DNA of 51,277 nucleotides from Escherichia phage tonnikala. Below are positions 5,226 to 44,040 of the stretch, piece after piece. How positions within the stretch are numbered: position 1 is the first letter of the stretch; each line of letters begins with the position of its first letter. The notes beneath the pieces are model-generated. The model saw only the letters and a program-made list of their open reading frames with translations, had not been told where the DNA came from and did no database searches. The translations under genes were made by a program, and so were the position numbers. Location of the stretch: the sequence record NC_049817.1; one strand, written 5' to 3'.

Positions 5226-6341
5226 ATGAAAAATGTAAAAATTACAGATGAGCAATTCAAGATCGAACGGGCGGCAGGTAAGACATATAAACAGATCGCT
5301 CAAGAGTACGGAATGAATGTTAGAAGCGTCGAGCGTCGCGCGGCGCGTCTTGCAAAGCAAGGACAGTTATCGACCATCGGAGCGCCTAGTTTTGGTGTTC
5401 ATGGTGAGTCAGTAATGACTGACAAAGAAGGAAATATAATCCTCAAGTGGACCAAAACCAGCAAGGATAAAGAGCAATTAGAGGCATTGATGCGCGCAGC
5501 TATGGAGGCGTTTAGCGAGGAAGTGCCGCGATTAGATCCAGTTCCATTGCAGGAGCGTAATTATAATGAAACGCTTTCATTGTATCCGATCTTTGACATG
5601 CACTTAGGCGCTATGGCCCATAAGCACGAATGCGGCGAAAATTGGGATACTGCGACGGCAGAGCGCGTTATGAATAACTTTATCGACTATGCTTTGATGT
5701 GCGCACCGGACAGCGAAAAGGCTGTTATCCTGATTGGTGGCGATATGCTGCATAGCGACGGCCTGGAGGCGGTGACACCTGCAAGCGGTCACGTACTTGA
5801 TCAAGATAGCCGATATGCAAAATTGGTTTACGTTGCAATCCGTGCAATGCGTCGCGCAATTAATAAAATGCTGTTAAAGCATAAACATGTTGAGGTCCAG
5901 ATCGTAGAGGGGAATCACGACCAATCAGGAATGATTTGGCTACGCGCAGCAATGGCGGCAGCATATGAGAACGAGCCGCGCGTTTACGTTGATGTTTCTC
6001 CTCGCGTTGTTCACCACACGCAATACGGAAAAACTTTCCTTGCGTACCATCACGGGCACACAGTGCGTAAACCGGAGACTTTGCTAATGATGTGCGCGTC
6101 AGATTGGCGGGAGGACTTCGGAAACTCAAAAACGATGTATGCGCACGTAGGGCACTGGCATCACCAGACCGTGACGGAAACGTCGCTTGGGATCGTGGAG
6201 GTACATAGCACCCTGGCAGCAAAAGACGCATACGCCGCGCGAGGTGGCTGGAGATCTCGACGCCGTGCGGCGGTTATCATTTACGACAAAGAGCATGGAG
6301 AAGTCGGGCGATTTGTTCACTATCCAGAAATGATGAGTTGA
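5226..6341 (+). CDS. calcineurin-like metallophosphoesterase with N-terminal sigma-70 region-4-like HTH
   Basis: Phosphoesterase motifs D-x-H (FDMHLG), GGD (IGGDMLHSD), GNHD (VEGNHDQ), HHGH, GHWHH; N-terminal TYKQIAQEYGMNVRSVERRAARL. Confidence 0.65.
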   Translation: MKNVKITDEQFKIERAAGKTYKQIAQEYGMNVRSVERRAARLAKQGQLSTIGAPSFGVHGESVMTDKEGNIILKWTKTSKDKEQLEALMRAAMEAFSEEVPRLDPVPLQERNYNETLSLYPIFDMHLGAMAHKHECGENWDTATAERVMNNFIDYALMCAPDSEKAVILIGGDMLHSDGLEAVTPASGHVLDQDSRYAKLVYVAIRAMRRAINKMLLKHKHVEVQIVEGNHDQSGMIWLRAAMAAAYENEPRVYVDVSPRVVHHTQYGKTFLAYHHGHTVRKPETLLMMCASDWREDFGNSKTMYAHVGHWHHQTVTETSLGIVEVHSTLAAKDAYAARGGWRSRRRAAVIIYDKEHGEVGRFVHYPEMMS

Positions 6342-6390
6342 TGAATTTTTATTTAAATCAATGACAAATTAAATCAAAAACTTGCAAAGG

Positions 6391-6417
6391 GGCGGCGTTT
6401 GTCGCCTCTTTTTTTTG
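6391..6417 (+). terminator. weak terminator-like hairpin with long T-run
   Basis: Short GGCG/CGCC stem followed by about 10 T residues after the phosphoesterase gene. Confidence 0.3.
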
Positions 6418-6486
6418 TTTAATTTTTTACCATGTGCGTTTATCATGCGGTCAATATATTGACTTTAATTAATATGGAGAATAAAA

Positions 6487-6702
6487 ATGAAAGATTTTAT
6501 TAACGCAGCTACCGCCGGATCTGGCGGTTCATCTATCGCAAGCGCCGCTACAGGGCAGTTAACCATTGCTATTGCCAGTTTTGTTTTAATGGCTGCATTC
6601 GGTGCGTGGGGCGCTTACCTTCGCTGGCGTGATAGTAAAAAATTCCACGAGGCGATCGAAAAAGGTGATATTCAAAAAGCTATTGAGATCAGGGGCAAGT
6701 AA
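6487..6702 (+). CDS. holin (small membrane protein)
   Basis: 71 aa with hydrophobic segment [21 protein letters not shown] and charged C-terminus; immediately upstream of lysozyme. Confidence 0.5.
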
Positions 6703-7193
6703 TGAGCATAAAGAACAGGGTAGCGGCTGCGGCCTTTGGCGTTGCGGTTGCCTTGACTTCTCCACTTCTTGAAGAGATCGAAGGGGTAAGATACAAGCCA
6801 TACAAAGATATTGCGGGAATATGGACGGTTTGCGCAGGAATCACCGGACCAGATGTTATCCTGGGGAAAACGTACACTAAAAAAGAGTGTGATGCTTTGT
6901 TGGCTAAACATATCCAGGTTGCTAAAAAAGAAGTTGACAAGCAGGTTAAGGTTGACATTCCTGATAGTATGCGTGCAGCAATGTACTCATTCACTTATAA
7001 TGCAGGCGTGGGAGCTTTCAGAAATTCAACAATGCTGAAACTCATCAACCAGGGGAAATTAAACGAGGCTTGCGATCAGCTTTATCGTTGGACGTATTAC
7101 CATAACCCCAAAACAGGAAGGCGCGAGAAGTCTAAAGGCTTACTTAACAGGCGCAAGGTCGAATACAAATATTGCACAATGGATCTGAAATGA
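6702..7193 (+). CDS. endolysin, T4-lysozyme-like glycoside hydrolase with probable SAR N-terminus
   Basis: Catalytic E...D...T arrangement (EEIEG...[11 protein letters not shown]); Ala/Gly-rich weakly hydrophobic N-terminus; start overlaps holin stop. Confidence 0.75.
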
Positions 7194-7585
7194 TGAGGAA
7201 ATTTTTACTTACACCAATCGCAATGGCGGTGATCTTGTCTGGATGTTCAAGCGTTACGCCACTGACCGGATTAATCGGCAGTAAGCCGGAAATCACAGCA
7301 CAGGCTGGCGCGGAGAACGTGAAGCAGACAGTTGGCATTACAGCAAAGCAGGACGCCAGCACAAAACAGAAAACCACAATAAAGGAATCTGCGGTTGACA
7401 AGGTGGACACGTCCAGCAAGAAGGATTTCACAACATCAACCATTCAGGCCAATACCATCAAGGCAGACAAAATTCAGGTCGTGCAGGGTAATAACGGCAG
7501 ATGGTACGATCCAGTAATCATATGCGTGGTTGTGTTAATTGTGCTGATTTGTCTTTACTGGAGAGAAAAGAAAAAGGAGGCTTAA
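7190..7585 (+). CDS. unimolecular spanin (T1 gp11-like)
   Basis: Lipoprotein signal with lipobox LSGC at N-terminus plus C-terminal transmembrane segment ([16 protein letters not shown]); ATG overlaps lysozyme stop. Confidence 0.65.
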
Positions 7586-7593
7586 TGCCTCCT
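7575..7593. terminator. bidirectional terminator hairpin
   Basis: AGGAGGC-TTAAT-GCCTCCT stem-loop between converging + and - genes, flanked by A-run and T-rich tail. Confidence 0.45.
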
Positions 7594-7596
7594 TTG

Positions 7597-7779
7597 TTAT
7601 TCGATACGCTTTACAGTAACCAACAAAACGCCGTCTTCATCACACAAATTATGCTCTGATATATCAAACGCTCGCATGTCAGAATGAATGAGCGTTAACA
7701 TTGCGTGCATGAAGTCGTCATGTGAGATTTGAGAAGTGGCGCAAAATTTAAGAATTTCATCTATCAGTTTACTTTCCAT
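7597..7779 (-). CDS. hypothetical small protein
   Basis: Minus ORF; start trimmed to internal ATG (MESKL...) to reduce overlap with HNH gene; no good RBS seen. Confidence 0.3.
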   Translation of the reverse strand: MESKLIDEILKFCATSQISHDDFMHAMLTLIHSDMRAFDISEHNLCDEDGVLLVTVKRIE

Positions 7780-8242
7780 GATTTTTGTGGTAGCCAAATT
7801 TAACCTCCGCCTGTTCCCTTGCCTTAATTGCATCATCAAGACTTAAAAAATATCCTAAATGCACGCTCTTACCGTTATCATATATAGTTGCGTGCCATCT
7901 TTTGTTTTTCTTATTCCAGCAAACACCAACTCGACCAGAGTTATTTCTTTTTAGTAGAGATACGTTTTTGCTGTTATCTAATCTTGATGCAAGCCTTAGA
8001 TTTTCAATTCTGTTATCGCTCCTATTGTGCCATATATGGTCTATTTCCATTCCTTCTGGTATTTTTCCATTGTGCATTTCCCATATTATCCTATGCGCCA
8101 AAAACAATACACCATTATACCTTATTCTCACATATCCATTTTCACATACACATCCCGCAACGCTTCCAGGCTTTGCTTTCCCTCTTCTGTTTCTCCATCT
8201 CAATATTCCATTGTCATATATAAATACTTCATTCCAATCCAT
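7769..8242 (-). CDS. HNH homing endonuclease with AP2-like DNA-binding domain
   Basis: 157 aa; HNH core EIDHIWHNRSDNRIENLR; C-terminal AP2-like segment; gene lies in a visibly AT-rich stretch. Confidence 0.75.
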   Translation of the reverse strand: MDWNEVFIYDNGILRWRNRRGKAKPGSVAGCVCENGYVRIRYNGVLFLAHRIIWEMHNGKIPEGMEIDHIWHNRSDNRIENLRLASRLDNSKNVSLLKRNNSGRVGVCWNKKNKRWHATIYDNGKSVHLGYFLSLDDAIKAREQAEVKFGYHKNHGK

Positions 8243-8624
8243 ATCTTTTCCTTAGAGCTTTTATTTGTTGTCTATTAGCTTTTGCCTGGAACAATTCATC
8301 ATCGCCCATCTCCCCTATTCTCGCCATATCCCTGATCCAGTCGTTGCGCATACCATCCAGGCTATACAATTCGAATCCGAAAGGCCGCTTTGACGATCCT
8401 TTGGACCAGTATTTTCCGCAGACCCCATCTATATAACCAGCCGTCATCATTCTTGCGCAAAATTCCTTAGATGCAAGGCTGGCGAACATTCGCGGCGTAA
8501 GTCCGGCGGCCCGCGCGAGCCGCTCGCATTCTCTATGCTGATAGATAAATTTGGCTATGTGCTGCCTGTTAAACCAGTCGTATGACTCACACCATTTATA
8601 CAGATCAAGCAAAAACATAATCAT
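8229..8624 (-). CDS. hypothetical protein
   Basis: 131 aa; start overlaps upstream gene stop (ATGA). Confidence 0.5.
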   Translation of the reverse strand: MIMFLLDLYKWCESYDWFNRQHIAKFIYQHRECERLARAAGLTPRMFASLASKEFCARMMTAGYIDGVCGKYWSKGSSKRPFGFELYSLDGMRNDWIRDMARIGEMGDDELFQAKANRQQIKALRKRYGLE

Positions 8625-40614: not shown

Positions 40615-43600
40615 ATGGCTAAATATATGATAAGCGGCAGTAAAGGGGGCGGTCAAAAGCCCTACGTGCCAAAAGAGATGGAAGATAACCTGATCTCGAT
40701 AAACAAGATTAAAGTTTTGCTGGCTGTATCTGATGGCGAGTGCGATCCAGATTTTACGTTGCGTGATCTTTATCTTGATGATGTTCCGGTTATTGCCAGC
40801 GATGGCACTGTTAACTACGAGGGAGTTACGGCTGAATATAGGCCAGGTACGCAGACGCAAGATTACATCCAGGGTTTTACTGACACATCAAGTGAGGTTA
40901 CAGTTGCCAGAGATATTACCGGAGACAATCCTTATGTTATTTCTGTTACAAATAAAAACCTATCTGCGGTAAGAATAAAGATCCTGATGCCAGTAGGCAT
41001 TAAAACAGAGGATAATGGCGATCTTGTTGGCGTAAGGGTTGAGTATGCCGTAGATATGGCTGTTGATGGCGGTTCTTATAGCGAGGTTATGAGAGATGTA
41101 ATTGACGGCAAGACAAGATCAGGATACGACCGCAGCAGAAGGATTGATCTTCCTAAGTTTGATGAGCGCGTTTTAATCAGGGTTAAGCGACTTACCCCAG
41201 ACAGCACATCTTCAAAGGTGACTGATAAAATCAAACTGCAAAGTTACGCTGAGGTTGTGGATGCAAAATTCCGTTATCCTCTGACTGGCCTTGTATTTGT
41301 AGAGTTTGACAGCGAATTGTTTCCTACACAAATACCTAACATTTCTATAAAAAAGAAGTGGAAGATTATTAATGTGCCAAGCAACTATGATCCAATATCA
41401 AGAGAATATCACGGGTCATGGGATGGGACTTTTAAAAAAGCGTGGTCAAATAATCCTGCATGGGTTCTTTATGATCTGGTGACTAATCAGCGTTATGGAC
41501 TTGACCAGCGAGAGTTAGGAATACAGATCGACAAGTGGAGCTTATACGAGGCAGGCGTTTACTGTGATCAGAAAGTTCCAGACGGTAAGGGCGGTACAGA
41601 GCCTCGCTACCTATGCGATGTGGTGATTCAGAATCAAGTTGAGGCTTATCAGCTAATCCGTGACATTTGCTCAATCTTTCGCGGAATGAGCTTTTGGAAT
41701 GGTGAGAGCTTATCAATCGTGATTGATAAGCCGCGCGATCCATCATACGTGTTTACTAATGAAAACGTCATCAACGGTGATTTTCAGTACACAACCGCAA
41801 GCGAAAAAAGCATGTACACGCAATGTAATGTGACGTTTGACGACGAACAAAACATGTATCAACAGGACGTCGAGGGGGTTTTTGATACTGAGGCGGCATT
41901 ACGATTTGGATACAATCCAACAAGCATTACAGCGATCGGGTGTACACGCAGGAGCGAAGCGAATCGTCGAGGTCGGTGGGTTTTGAAAACAAACCTTAGA
42001 AGCACTACTGTAAACTTTTCTACCGGACTAGAGGGGATGATTCCATCCATAGGTGATGTGATTGCTATCGCTGATAATTTTCAGAGCAGCAATCTAACGT
42101 TAAATCTTTCGGGCCGAGTAATGGAAGTTTCAGGCTTGCAAGTTTTCGTTCCGTTTAAGGTTGATGTGCGTCCTGGTGATTTTATTATCATCAACAAGCC
42201 GGACGGAAAGCCAGTTAAGCGAACGATCTCAAAGGTGAGCGCAGACGGAAAAACCATTGAGTTAAATATTGGCTTTGGTTTTGATGTTAAGCCTGATACT
42301 GTTTTTGCGATTGACCGTACTGACCTTGCGTTGCAGCAATACGTTGTGACAACTATCAGCAAGGGTGATGACGAAAACGAGTTTACCTTTTCAATCACGG
42401 CTGTGGAGTACGATCCGAACAAATACGACGAGATTGATTATGGCGTAAACATTGATGACAGGCCAACTTCAATTGTTCAGCCTGACGTGATGGCAGCGCC
42501 GGAGAATGTTCAGATCTCATCTTATTCTCGCGTCGTGCAGGGTGTTAGCGTTGAAACTATGGTTGTTTCATGGGATAAGGTTCCTTACGCATCGCTTTAT
42601 GAAATGCAGTGGCGAAAAGGTGATGGTAACTGGCTGAACACGCCGCAGACCGCTAACAAAGAGATAGAGGTAGAAGGAATTTATTCAGGCAACTACCAAG
42701 TAAGGGTTAGATCTGTTTCTGCAAGTGGGAACACCTCCCCGTGGTCAAAGATTGTAACCGCCACCCTGACAGGTAAAGTTGGCGAGCCAGGAGCGCCGAT
42801 TAATCTTACAGCTTCTGATAATGAAGTTTTTGGCATTCGTGTCAAATGGGGTATGCCGGAAGGATCAGGAGATACGGCTTACATTGAGCTTCACCAATCG
42901 CCAGATGGAACGGTGGAAAACTCAAGTTTGCTTACGCTGATCCCGTATCCTCAATATGAGTATTGGCATAGTACGTTACCAGCTGGGAAAGTTGTATGGT
43001 ATAGAATCCGTAGCGTTGACAGAATAGGCAACGTTTCCGGCTGGACTGACTTTGTTCGTGGCATGGCGTCAGATGATGTTGAATCTGTTTTAGGCGACAT
43101 TCTGGACAAGATTTTTGATACCGAAGCTGGTCAAGAAATCAAAGAGAACGCCATAGACAGTGCCAACAAAATCAAAGACCAGGCGCAATCAATCATCCAG
43201 AACGCTTTGGCAAATGATTCTGATGTTAGAGTTATGAAAAAGGAGAATGGGAAACGGAAAGCTGAATTTAGGCAATCTATACAGATGATTGCTGATGAAA
43301 CAGAGGCAAGGGTAACAGCGTTAACGCAATTAAAAGCAGAATTTGATGAGGAGATAACTAGCGAAGTAACAAGACTTGATCAGGCGATCGCAACAGAATC
43401 AGAAACGCGAGCAACAGCTATAGAGGAATTAAAATCACAGATTGGTGATGATATTCAGGGGCAGTTAACGAGAGTTGAGGAAGCGATTGCAAGCGAAACA
43501 GAGGCGCGCGTTTCTGCCGATACTGCATTAACGGCAAAGTTTGGTGATCTTGAGTCGGCACTTACTGAAAAACTTGATTCATGGGCTGGCGTTGATTCCG

Positions 43601-44040
43601 TTGGTGCTCAATATTCAATGAAGCTGGGCCTAACCTATAATGGTCAGCAGTACAGCGCCGGAATGGTTATGCAGTTAACGCAATCACCGCAAGGATTAAT
43701 ATCACAGATTCTGTTTGACGCTAACAGATTCGCGATCATGACAAGTTCTAGCGGCGGGGCATATACGCTTCCTTTCGTGGTTGAGAATAACCAGGTTTTC
43801 ATCAATAGCTTACTTGTGAAAGATGGTTCAATAACTAATGCCATGATTGGAAACTTTATTCAGTCAAACAATTTTGTTCAAAATCAGCAAGGTTGGAGGC
43901 TTGATAAAAACGGAACATTTGAAAACTACGGATCAACTCCAGGAGAGGGAGCTACTAAATTCACCAACGAAGGATTGAAGGTAAAAGATGCAAACGGAGT
44001 ATTGAGGGTTGAAGTCGGAAGGATTACCGGAAGCTGGTAA
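40615..44040 (+). CDS. tail tip / central fibre protein (lambda gpJ-like host specificity protein)
   Basis: 1141 aa, position after I-like gene, beta-rich domains in the middle, coiled-coil segment near C-terminus. Confidence 0.8.
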   Translation: MAKYMISGSKGGGQKPYVPKEMEDNLISINKIKVLLAVSDGECDPDFTLRDLYLDDVPVIASDGTVNYEGVTAEYRPGTQTQDYIQGFTDTSSEVTVARDITGDNPYVISVTNKNLSAVRIKILMPVGIKTEDNGDLVGVRVEYAVDMAVDGGSYSEVMRDVIDGKTRSGYDRSRRIDLPKFDERVLIRVKRLTPDSTSSKVTDKIKLQSYAEVVDAKFRYPLTGLVFVEFDSELFPTQIPNISIKKKWKIINVPSNYDPISREYHGSWDGTFKKAWSNNPAWVLYDLVTNQRYGLDQRELGIQIDKWSLYEAGVYCDQKVPDGKGGTEPRYLCDVVIQNQVEAYQLIRDICSIFRGMSFWNGESLSIVIDKPRDPSYVFTNENVINGDFQYTTASEKSMYTQCNVTFDDEQNMYQQDVEGVFDTEAALRFGYNPTSITAIGCTRRSEANRRGRWVLKTNLRSTTVNFSTGLEGMIPSIGDVIAIADNFQSSNLTLNLSGRVMEVSGLQVFVPFKVDVRPGDFIIINKPDGKPVKRTISKVSADGKTIELNIGFGFDVKPDTVFAIDRTDLALQQYVVTTISKGDDENEFTFSITAVEYDPNKYDEIDYGVNIDDRPTSIVQPDVMAAPENVQISSYSRVVQGVSVETMVVSWDKVPYASLYEMQWRKGDGNWLNTPQTANKEIEVEGIYSGNYQVRVRSVSASGNTSPWSKIVTATLTGKVGEPGAPINLTASDNEVFGIRVKWGMPEGSGDTAYIELHQSPDGTVENSSLLTLIPYPQYEYWHSTLPAGKVVWYRIRSVDRIGNVSGWTDFVRGMASDDVESVLGDILDKIFDTEAGQEIKENAIDSANKIKDQAQSIIQNALANDSDVRVMKKENGKRKAEFRQSIQMIADETEARVTALTQLKAEFDEEITSEVTRLDQAIATESETRATAIEELKSQIGDDIQGQLTRVEEAIASETEARVSADTALTAKFGDLESALTEKLDSWAGVDSVGAQYSMKLGLTYNGQQYSAGMVMQLTQSPQGLISQILFDANRFAIMTSSSGGAYTLPFVVENNQVFINSLLVKDGSITNAMIGNFIQSNNFVQNQQGWRLDKNGTFENYGSTPGEGATKFTNEGLKVKDANGVLRVEVGRITGSW

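Follow-up and report, generated by a model that had tools for sequence, protein, structure and literature searches.

Three open reading frames (ORFs) stood in a row on the plus strand between positions 6487 and 7585 of the window, the 51,277-nucleotide stretch of Escherichia phage tonnikala DNA (NC_049817.1). The arrangement was read from both the ORF list and the raw sequence.

6487-6702, plus strand: holin ORF, 71 amino acids, ATG start, with a GGAG Shine-Dalgarno sequence 7 nt upstream
6702-7193, plus strand: endolysin ORF, 163 amino acids, ATG start
7190-7585, plus strand: spanin ORF, 131 amino acids, ATG start, with a second in-frame ATG at 7193

Rereading the sequence showed that the coordinates and lengths in the preliminary description were exact, as was its statement that the three genes overlap by 1 to 4 nt. 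At the holin/endolysin junction (GCAAG TAATG AGC), the stop codon TAA (6700-6702) and the start codon ATG (6702-6704) have 1 nt in common, and at the endolysin/spanin junction (CTGAA ATGA TG), a start codon at 7190-7192 and a stop codon TGA at 7191-7193 create an overlap of 4 nt (7190-7193). Start/stop overlaps of 1 nt and 4 nt suggest that translation of the holin, endolysin, and spanin genes is coupled. Antisense ORFs also cross the region, for example, a 99-amino-acid frame with an LASC motif on the minus strand at 7144-7443. These were rejected as mirror-strand artifacts of well-supported genes.

Profile searches against PHROGs returned E values of 3.8e-32 for the holin (phrog_2877), 6e-55 for the endolysin (phrog_7), and 7e-47 for the Rz-like spanin (phrog_1804), and the match to phrog_2877, a holin profile, covered residues 1 to 71 of 71. 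Pfam recognized only the endolysin, as Phage_lysozyme (PF00959; E value, 8e-39). PHROGs was the informative library for the other two proteins, as no Pfam or NCBIfam model recognizes the holin or the unimolecular spanin (u-spanin); searches of these two proteins against Pfam and NCBIfam yielded only subthreshold noise (for example, DUF3262, RIFIN, and spanin2_3 at 23 bits, where the cutoff is 80). Judged by their PHROG, Pfam, and BLASTP E values, the lysis gene matches lie far beyond chance.

Over the initial 25 kb of the window, as over the cassette, DNA identity was 97 to 99% to the phages tonijn, Poky, MikeNSara, brachmannus, vB_Eco-B1.2, and vB_EcoS-95. Tonijn (NC_049818) is classified in the Drexlerviridae (Tempevirinae; Warwickvirus), and sequence similarity assigns the window to a Warwickvirus-like coliphage of the same family and subfamily. 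Within the cassette itself, nucleotide identity to Warwickvirus tonijn, Poky, MikeNSara, and brachmannus was 97.7 to 99.2%, the genes had the same relative coordinates, and only point differences separated the sequences. Orthologues of all three genes are already annotated in these relatives as holin, endolysin, and Rz-like or unimolecular spanin. In these records, a DNA-repair exonuclease/phosphoesterase gene lies on one side of the cassette and a convergent helicase operon on the other. Directly downstream of the cassette, at 7602-8267, the window differs by having another module with an HNH endonuclease that tonijn lacks.

The label "T1-type" in the preliminary description was borne out by direct homology to T1's holin, endolysin, and u-spanin genes (13, 12, and 11), which occupy 42878-43982 of NC_005833 in the same order and with similarly tight or overlapping junctions. 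In BLASTP comparisons, the holin was 55% identical to T1 gp13 in a gapless alignment over 71 amino acids (E value, 4e-29), the endolysin was 65% identical to gp12 (E value, 5e-80), and the spanin was 46% identical to gp11 over 126 of 131 residues (E value, 1e-36). The two cassettes have an identical lipobox (LSGC) and a terminator stem over the spanin stop codon in common. Their neighbors are also alike, with an exonuclease (in the window, exonuclease/phosphoesterase) gene upstream and a convergent helicase operon downstream; in T1 the gene arrangement is 16 ... 13, 12, 11, followed by 10 and 9. Differences between the two include their subfamilies (Tunavirinae for T1, Tempevirinae/Warwickvirus-like for the window), an HNH endonuclease gene and a small ORF that lie between the exonuclease and holin genes of T1 and are absent from the window, and the sequence of the spanin C-terminal transmembrane domain (TMD), which has diverged from that of gp11. 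The cassette of TLS, a Tempevirinae phage, has been described in like terms (PMC11447400). Gene structure, homology, motifs, and hydropathy were observed directly at this locus, which very probably is a T1-type late lysis cassette of a T1-like coliphage, composed of a holin (likely a pinholin), an endolysin of the signal-anchor-release (SAR) type, and a u-spanin.

Two hairpins flank the cassette.

6386-6411, plus strand: intrinsic terminator hairpin from a terminator scan, with an 11-bp stem followed by T8 (fold of -16.6 kcal/mol, z of -3.9)
7573-7595, no strand assigned: 9-bp GC-rich hairpin AAAGGAGGC-TTAAT-GCCTCCTTT with the spanin stop codon in its loop, from the terminator scan of the minus strand

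The first of these is predicted to end the transcription unit of the upstream exonuclease/phosphoesterase gene and to mark the 5' boundary of the cassette. T1, Mishu, Samwise, JeanPiccard, and 2004III each have an equivalent hairpin upstream of their holin gene. The second folded at -16.1 kcal/mol on the plus strand and -15.1 kcal/mol on the minus strand, with z values of -3.1 and -3.9. Because its T-run is on the minus strand, this hairpin is assigned chiefly to termination of the convergent minus-strand genes, and it would probably terminate the lysis transcript less strongly. T1 gene 11 ends in the same stem, which is annotated as a minus-strand terminator (43966-43988). In a sigma-70 scan, promoter-like sites were no commoner than in shuffled sequence (2 found versus 3.3 expected), and none is put forward as a promoter. 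An Rfam scan of positions 6200 to 7900 at E values up to 1 produced only three small RNA matches, all far below threshold and judged to be due to chance. A conserved TTGACA-like element, which reads TTGACT in the window (6459), precedes the holin ATG by about 25 nt.

Two features of the endolysin bear on how this enzyme might be controlled and how it cuts.

6720-6770, plus strand: codons of the putative SAR domain (residues 7 to 23, after K4 and R6), which aligns with the SAR domain of R21
6780-6827, plus strand: codons of the catalytic triad, E27 (6780-6782), D36 (6807-6809), and T42 (6825-6827), in the spacing E-x8-D-x5-T

The triad and the PF00959 match agree with the earlier description of this protein as T4-lysozyme-like, and homology identifies it as a GH24 (T4-lysozyme-type) endolysin, orthologous to T1 gp12 and homologous to R21. 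Its best relatives among solved structures were R21 (3HDE, full length, and 3HDF, truncated; best E value, 9e-47) and Escherichia coli RrrD of DLP12 (4ZPU), at E values of about 1e-46. Alignment with R21 in the PDB search begins at endolysin residue 2, so it spans the N-terminal domain. When the endolysin was aligned with R21 and five Drexlerviridae orthologues representing four subfamilies or genera (T1, Mishu, Samwise, JeanPiccard, and 2004III), E27, D36, and T42 were invariant. R21 and RrrD are about 52% identical to the endolysin and have the same E-x8-D-x5-T spacing and the same succession of a basic N terminus and an Ala/Gly-rich, Cys-free SAR segment. Compared to these proteins, the endolysin needs 6 fewer linker residues to get from its SAR segment to the catalytic Glu, has a SAR segment that is shorter and less hydrophobic, and has a 6-residue insertion (NPKTGR region) near the C terminus.

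The N terminus reads MSIKNR, followed by 17 uncharged residues (53% Gly/Ala/Ser/Thr) with a Kyte-Doolittle mean of 2.0, consistent with its original depiction as Ala/Gly rich and weakly hydrophobic. Residues 1 to 26 contain no Cys, as in class II (R21-type) SAR endolysins and unlike the class I P1 Lyz type. Class II SAR sequences have been defined by a weakly hydrophobic TMD that carries no charge, is rich in Gly, Ala, Ser, and Thr, and comes after one to three N-terminal basic residues (PMC9239132), and every aligned endolysin had one to three basic residues and then a charge-free segment running into the region of the catalytic Glu. In the window, Glu27 is only four residues past the SAR segment. 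Hessa sums over 17 residues were +2.1 for the endolysin, +0.15 for the R21 SAR domain, and +2.7 for T1 gp12, compared to -2.65 for the spanin anchor. SAR domains are described as marginally hydrophobic (PMC9239132), and the sum of +2.1 makes the endolysin segment, like them, only marginally so. The SAR-like designation was further strengthened by the closest structure being that of R21, an experimentally established SAR endolysin aligned through its N-terminal domain, and by the two basic residues ahead of the uncharged segment. Homology and composition together make it highly likely that the endolysin N terminus stays uncleaved and acts as a SAR anchor. Dependence on Sec was shown for a class II SAR endolysin of the Drexlerviridae (bioRxiv 10.64898/2026.09.09.750462), and release driven by a pinholin is considered the decisive test of whether an endolysin is of the SAR type (PMC9239132).

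If the same residues were instead an ordinary cleavable Sec signal, the product would be a soluble periplasmic enzyme controlled in some other way. The sequence A15-V16-A17 fits the -3/-1 rule for signal peptidase, the hydrophobic stretch is short (17 residues), and there is a precedent in T4 RI, where a presumed SAR domain is reported to be a cleaved signal peptide (PMC8385771). However, the AXA motif was not conserved. The corresponding -1 residues are L, L, L, I, and I in T1, Mishu, Samwise, JeanPiccard, and 2004III, respectively, and because these residues are Leu or Ile, the endolysins have no conserved cleavage site; most of the five also have Pro two to four residues further on. What is conserved is the charge-free segment abutting the catalytic Glu. 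An A-I-A motif is present in the homologue R21 as well, and R21 reportedly remains uncleaved and needs its SAR domain to refold into active enzyme. A constitutively active exported lysozyme would also be expected to lyse the host prematurely. Taken together, a cleavable signal is quite unlikely here, and an uncleaved SAR anchor is the preferred reading.

The spanin gene, the last of the lysis cassette, encodes two predicted membrane anchors.

7190-7246, plus strand: lipoprotein signal peptide, with the lipobox LSGC (residues 16 to 19) at 7235-7246, by PROSITE-type pattern match
7511-7561, plus strand: C-terminal inner-membrane anchor (residues 108 to 124), with a Kyte-Doolittle mean of 3.0 and a Hessa sum of -2.65

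[quoted passage not shown] Acylation is predicted at Cys19, and from its Ser at +2 the protein is predicted to be sorted to the outer membrane. After the helix comes a basic tail, REKKKEA, that is presumably cytoplasmic. The only cysteines beyond Cys19 are C112 and C121, both within the TMD, leaving the periplasmic portion without Cys. By definition, a u-spanin combines both anchors, lipobox and C-terminal TMD, within a single protein (Kongari et al. 2018, PMC6139136), and periplasmic cysteines were not found in them (PMC6139136). T1 gp11, which has LSGC as its wild-type lipobox, complements lambda RzRz1 and is the u-spanin prototype (PMC6139136). Spanin families are grouped at identities of at least 40% over at least 40% of the length (PMC6139136), and the protein in the window combines a lipobox and its Cys, a C-terminal TMD, identity to T1 gp11 of at least 40%, no periplasmic Cys, and no Asp at +2. 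These similarities identify the 131-amino-acid protein as a u-spanin, an orthologue of T1 gp11, and a member of the T1gp11 family. All members of this family but two are encoded in pinholin/SAR endolysin cassettes (PMC6139136).

Database searches with the spanin recovered 744 homologues, annotated in relatives as u-spanin or Rz-like spanin. A sample of 120 of the database homologues was surveyed along with T1 gp11 and the query. A lipobox was recognizable in 118, with LSGC in 116 of the 118 and Ser at +2 in 117 of the 118. Nearly all had a hydrophobic C-terminal segment, and a periplasmic Cys occurred in one only. The periplasmic motif L..GL(I/L)..(K/S)P(E/D)(I/V)(T/S)AQ.GAEN.K was strongly conserved across subfamilies, whereas the sequence of the TMD was not. 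The periplasmic domain of the T1gp11 family has been described as having a short helix and, after it, at least four beta elements (Kongari et al. 2018, PMC6139136). An AlphaFold2 prediction from a 52-sequence alignment modeled only the signal helix and the C-terminal transmembrane helix (mean pLDDT, 54). The helix at residues 107 to 129 was the only block with a pLDDT near 88, and for residues 20 to 105, where values stayed under 50, no secondary structure was modeled and the reported beta-rich character was not seen.

Gene callers frequently overlook embedded o-spanin genes (PMC6139136), which raises the question of whether the third gene is only half of a two-component spanin with a hidden partner embedded in or overlapping it. 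A six-frame scan of positions 6400 to 7700 effectively refuted such an o-spanin. On the sense strand, the 7190-7585 frame alone had a lipobox behind a basic N terminus, with no second lipobox ORF, and the supposed signal peptide of the one antisense lipobox ORF contained acidic residues. Both anchors also reside in one polypeptide, and the T1 homologue by itself complements the lambda RzRz1 defect (PMC6139136). A two-component arrangement is accordingly extremely improbable. The u-spanin occupies the same slot as lambda Rz/Rz1, as the last lysis gene, and is predicted to have the same topology linking the inner and outer membranes; T1 gp11 complements an RzRz1 defect (PMC6139136). Unlike lambda Rz/Rz1, it is a single polypeptide without a coiled-coil i-spanin, periplasmic cysteines, or sequence similarity to the lambda proteins.

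The 71-amino-acid product had been called a holin in the preliminary description, in agreement with its phrog_2877 match and its identity to gp13, and homology makes it a member of the T1 gp13 family (PHROG 2877) orthologous to T1 gp13. Only residues 25 to 45 have TMD-grade hydrophobicity (Hessa, +0.5). The segment N-terminal to them is 94% Gly/Ala/Ser/Thr over residues 7 to 23, with a Hessa sum of +7.8 over residues 4 to 22. Because the tail that follows residues 25 to 45 is basic, the C terminus is predicted to be cytoplasmic. In the holin family alignment, F38, G39, W41, G42, and A43 were invariant.

A comparison was made to S21 68, the sequence of which was verified at 100% identity in the phage 21 genome. 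Pinholins of the S21 68 type are characterized by two TMDs, the first of them weakly hydrophobic and capable of exiting the membrane, and by nanometer-scale holes too small for a folded cytoplasmic endolysin. The two holins are similar in size (68 versus 71 amino acids), are encoded directly upstream of a SAR endolysin, and have a similar hydropathy layout: the N-terminal segment is weak and rich in Gly, Ala, and Ser, the one genuine TMD has many small residues, and the C-terminal tail is basic. On the Hessa scale, TMD1 of S21 68, the one that leaves the membrane, scored +6.4 and TMD2 scored +1.0. The holin differs from S21 68 in having an N-terminal segment that is even less hydrophobic and in having no detectable sequence or profile similarity to it (no BLASTP alignment; hhalign probability of 0.2%). 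The holin has no dual-start (antiholin) motif.

These data bear on two ways in which the holin could act. T1 and TLS holins were called two-TMD class II pinholins in the TLS paper (PMC11447400), and surveys place T1-family holins among the pinholins by a classification that is bioinformatic rather than experimental (PMC6139136, PMC11447400). The alternative is a holin with a single TMD (N-out, C-in) that forms canonical large holes. A SAR endolysin would still be released by such a protein, since any holin collapses the proton motive force. One TMD is what the T1 record (NC_005833) annotates for gp13, and one is what the hydropathy scale returns at TMD grade (residues 25 to 45), with the N-terminal segment at +7.8 so weakly hydrophobic that it may never insert; the failure of BLASTP and hhalign to find S21 68 similarity points the same way. 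However, the hydropathy of the holin, in which a real TMD rich in small residues comes after a Gly/Ala/Ser-rich segment of very weak hydrophobicity, closely mirrors that of S21 68, and the surveys favor pinholins. On balance, a large-hole, single-TMD holin is unlikely, with a small but real chance of being correct. By analogy, the holin probably works like a pinholin, but for want of sequence or profile similarity to S21 68 it was not placed in the S21 family.

In a third reading, T1-family holins may be topologically distinct pinholins. The conserved Gly/Ala/Ser/Thr-rich N-terminal segment would never insert, leaving an N-out single TMD resembling an S21 68 protein without TMD1, and timing would be set differently, without a dual-start antiholin and possibly with help from the TTGACA-like element. 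Hydropathy and motif conservation are the evidence that this may be so, and the reading as a whole is improbable. Were the TTGACA-like element to act as a promoter, the transcript would begin within the holin gene and would express only the two downstream genes, for the SAR endolysin and the spanin.

With the holin taken as a probable pinholin, the cassette would be expected to operate as follows. The 163-amino-acid GH24 lysozyme would be exported by the host Sec system and remain enzymatically inactive, held at the inner membrane by an N-terminal SAR domain that is weakly hydrophobic and not cleaved. The 71-amino-acid holin would accumulate in the inner membrane until, at a programmed time, it triggers and depolarizes the membrane, most likely as a small-hole pinholin. 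Loss of the proton motive force would allow the SAR domain to leave the bilayer and the enzyme to refold into its active form, as for the homologue R21, and the active endolysin would degrade peptidoglycan. The 131-amino-acid spanin would be threaded through the murein meshwork, with the lipid on Cys19 anchoring it in the outer membrane's inner leaflet and the C-terminal helix anchoring it in the inner membrane. Once the murein is gone, it would be free to fuse or disrupt both membranes, letting the progeny out. This chain of five events (export, triggering, release, murein loss, and membrane fusion) is the established model for such cassettes, and homology supports it here; what it assumes about topology, lack of cleavage, the size of the pinholes, and fusion of the membranes is drawn from the characterized homologues T1 gp11, R21, S21 68, and 57_3Lys.

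The cassette is of a textbook type, is already annotated in near-identical GenBank genomes, and in no respect departs from the known pattern; the prototype of its family has been examined by genetics. Questions that concern the whole family, such as how beta-type u-spanins fuse membranes or what topology and hole size T1-type holins have, are no more tractable at this locus than in T1 itself. Uses of the results are correct gene naming and mining of the endolysin as an antibacterial, with little beyond annotation. For the phage, the analysis confirms that this genome follows the typical Drexlerviridae lysis strategy of a probable pinholin, a SAR endolysin, and a unimolecular spanin.

The last gene of the lysis cassette, encoding the unimolecular spanin (u-spanin; 7190 to 7585 on the plus strand), ends within an RNA hairpin.

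7566 to 7595, T-run on the minus strand: terminator stem AAAGGAGGC...GCCTCCTTT, covering the spanin's last codons, K-E-A-stop

The spanin stop codon falls in the loop of this stem, which, given its minus-strand T-run, may be only a weak terminator for the lysis transcript. Phage T1 (NC_005833), in which gp11 is the orthologous u-spanin, has the identical stem at 43966 to 43988, along with an identical spanin C-terminal KKEA. Because stem and KKEA are both common to the window and T1, the spanin C-terminal residues and the RNA hairpin are under double constraint.

The membrane anchor of the spanin was variable among homologues. In the close relatives BEK12B and JLBYU41, the spanin match (85 to 88%) was confined to residues 1 to 108, with complete divergence past residue 108, i.e., in the C-terminal transmembrane domain and tail (window 7511 to 7585), and the spanin homologue alignment contained zero conserved residues in the transmembrane domain. 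Such complete divergence of domain and tail in these two phages argues that the anchor is a module that is either separately exchangeable or fast-evolving.

Compared with tonijn (NC_049818), the closest annotated relative, ~660 bp are swapped in the window for an HNH module.

7602 to 8267, directly past the lysis-cassette hairpin: HNH module, with minus-strand ORFs at 7597 to 7839 and 7769 to 8242

The match to tonijn picks up again at 8268. The module product is a 157-amino-acid HNH_3 (plus AP2-like) homing-type endonuclease (Pfam E value, 8e-22). At least 80% of the module was present in only 6 phage records in the phage database search, among them brachmannus (100% identity) and Fulano1 and the BEK/BEC phages (~90%).

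At the other end of the cassette, alignment of upstream regions identified a candidate promoter-like element near the holin start, common to the window, Mishu, Samwise, JeanPiccard, and 2004III.

Region 6459 to 6488, 22 to 27 nt 5' of the holin ATG: −35-like hexamer, TTGACT/TTGACA

In the same alignment, T1 had neither hexamer upstream of its holin ATG. A −10 element at normal spacing would overlap the holin ATG, and transcription from the hexamer would therefore start within the holin gene. Sites in the overall promoter scan were not above shuffled expectation.

T1-like lysis cassettes and flanks, with 60 to 83% identity to the window, also occur in ~20 GenBank "Campylobacter phage" records (host, Campylobacter jejuni; e.g., MG065688.1, MG065638.1, and MG065636.1). 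These look like Drexlerviridae coliphage-type genomes, for which the host label is unexpected.

The phage database search also placed homologues of the T1gp11-family u-spanin (~43% identity) in Autographiviridae Klebsiella podophages.

Klebsiella phage VLC5 (Drulisvirus), 1504 to 2735: spanin-holin-endolysin cassette with a T1gp11-family u-spanin homologue

The order in the Klebsiella podophages is spanin, holin, endolysin, whereas in the window it is holin, endolysin, spanin. It follows that the spanin gene has moved across unrelated families of phages, and across cassette layouts as well.
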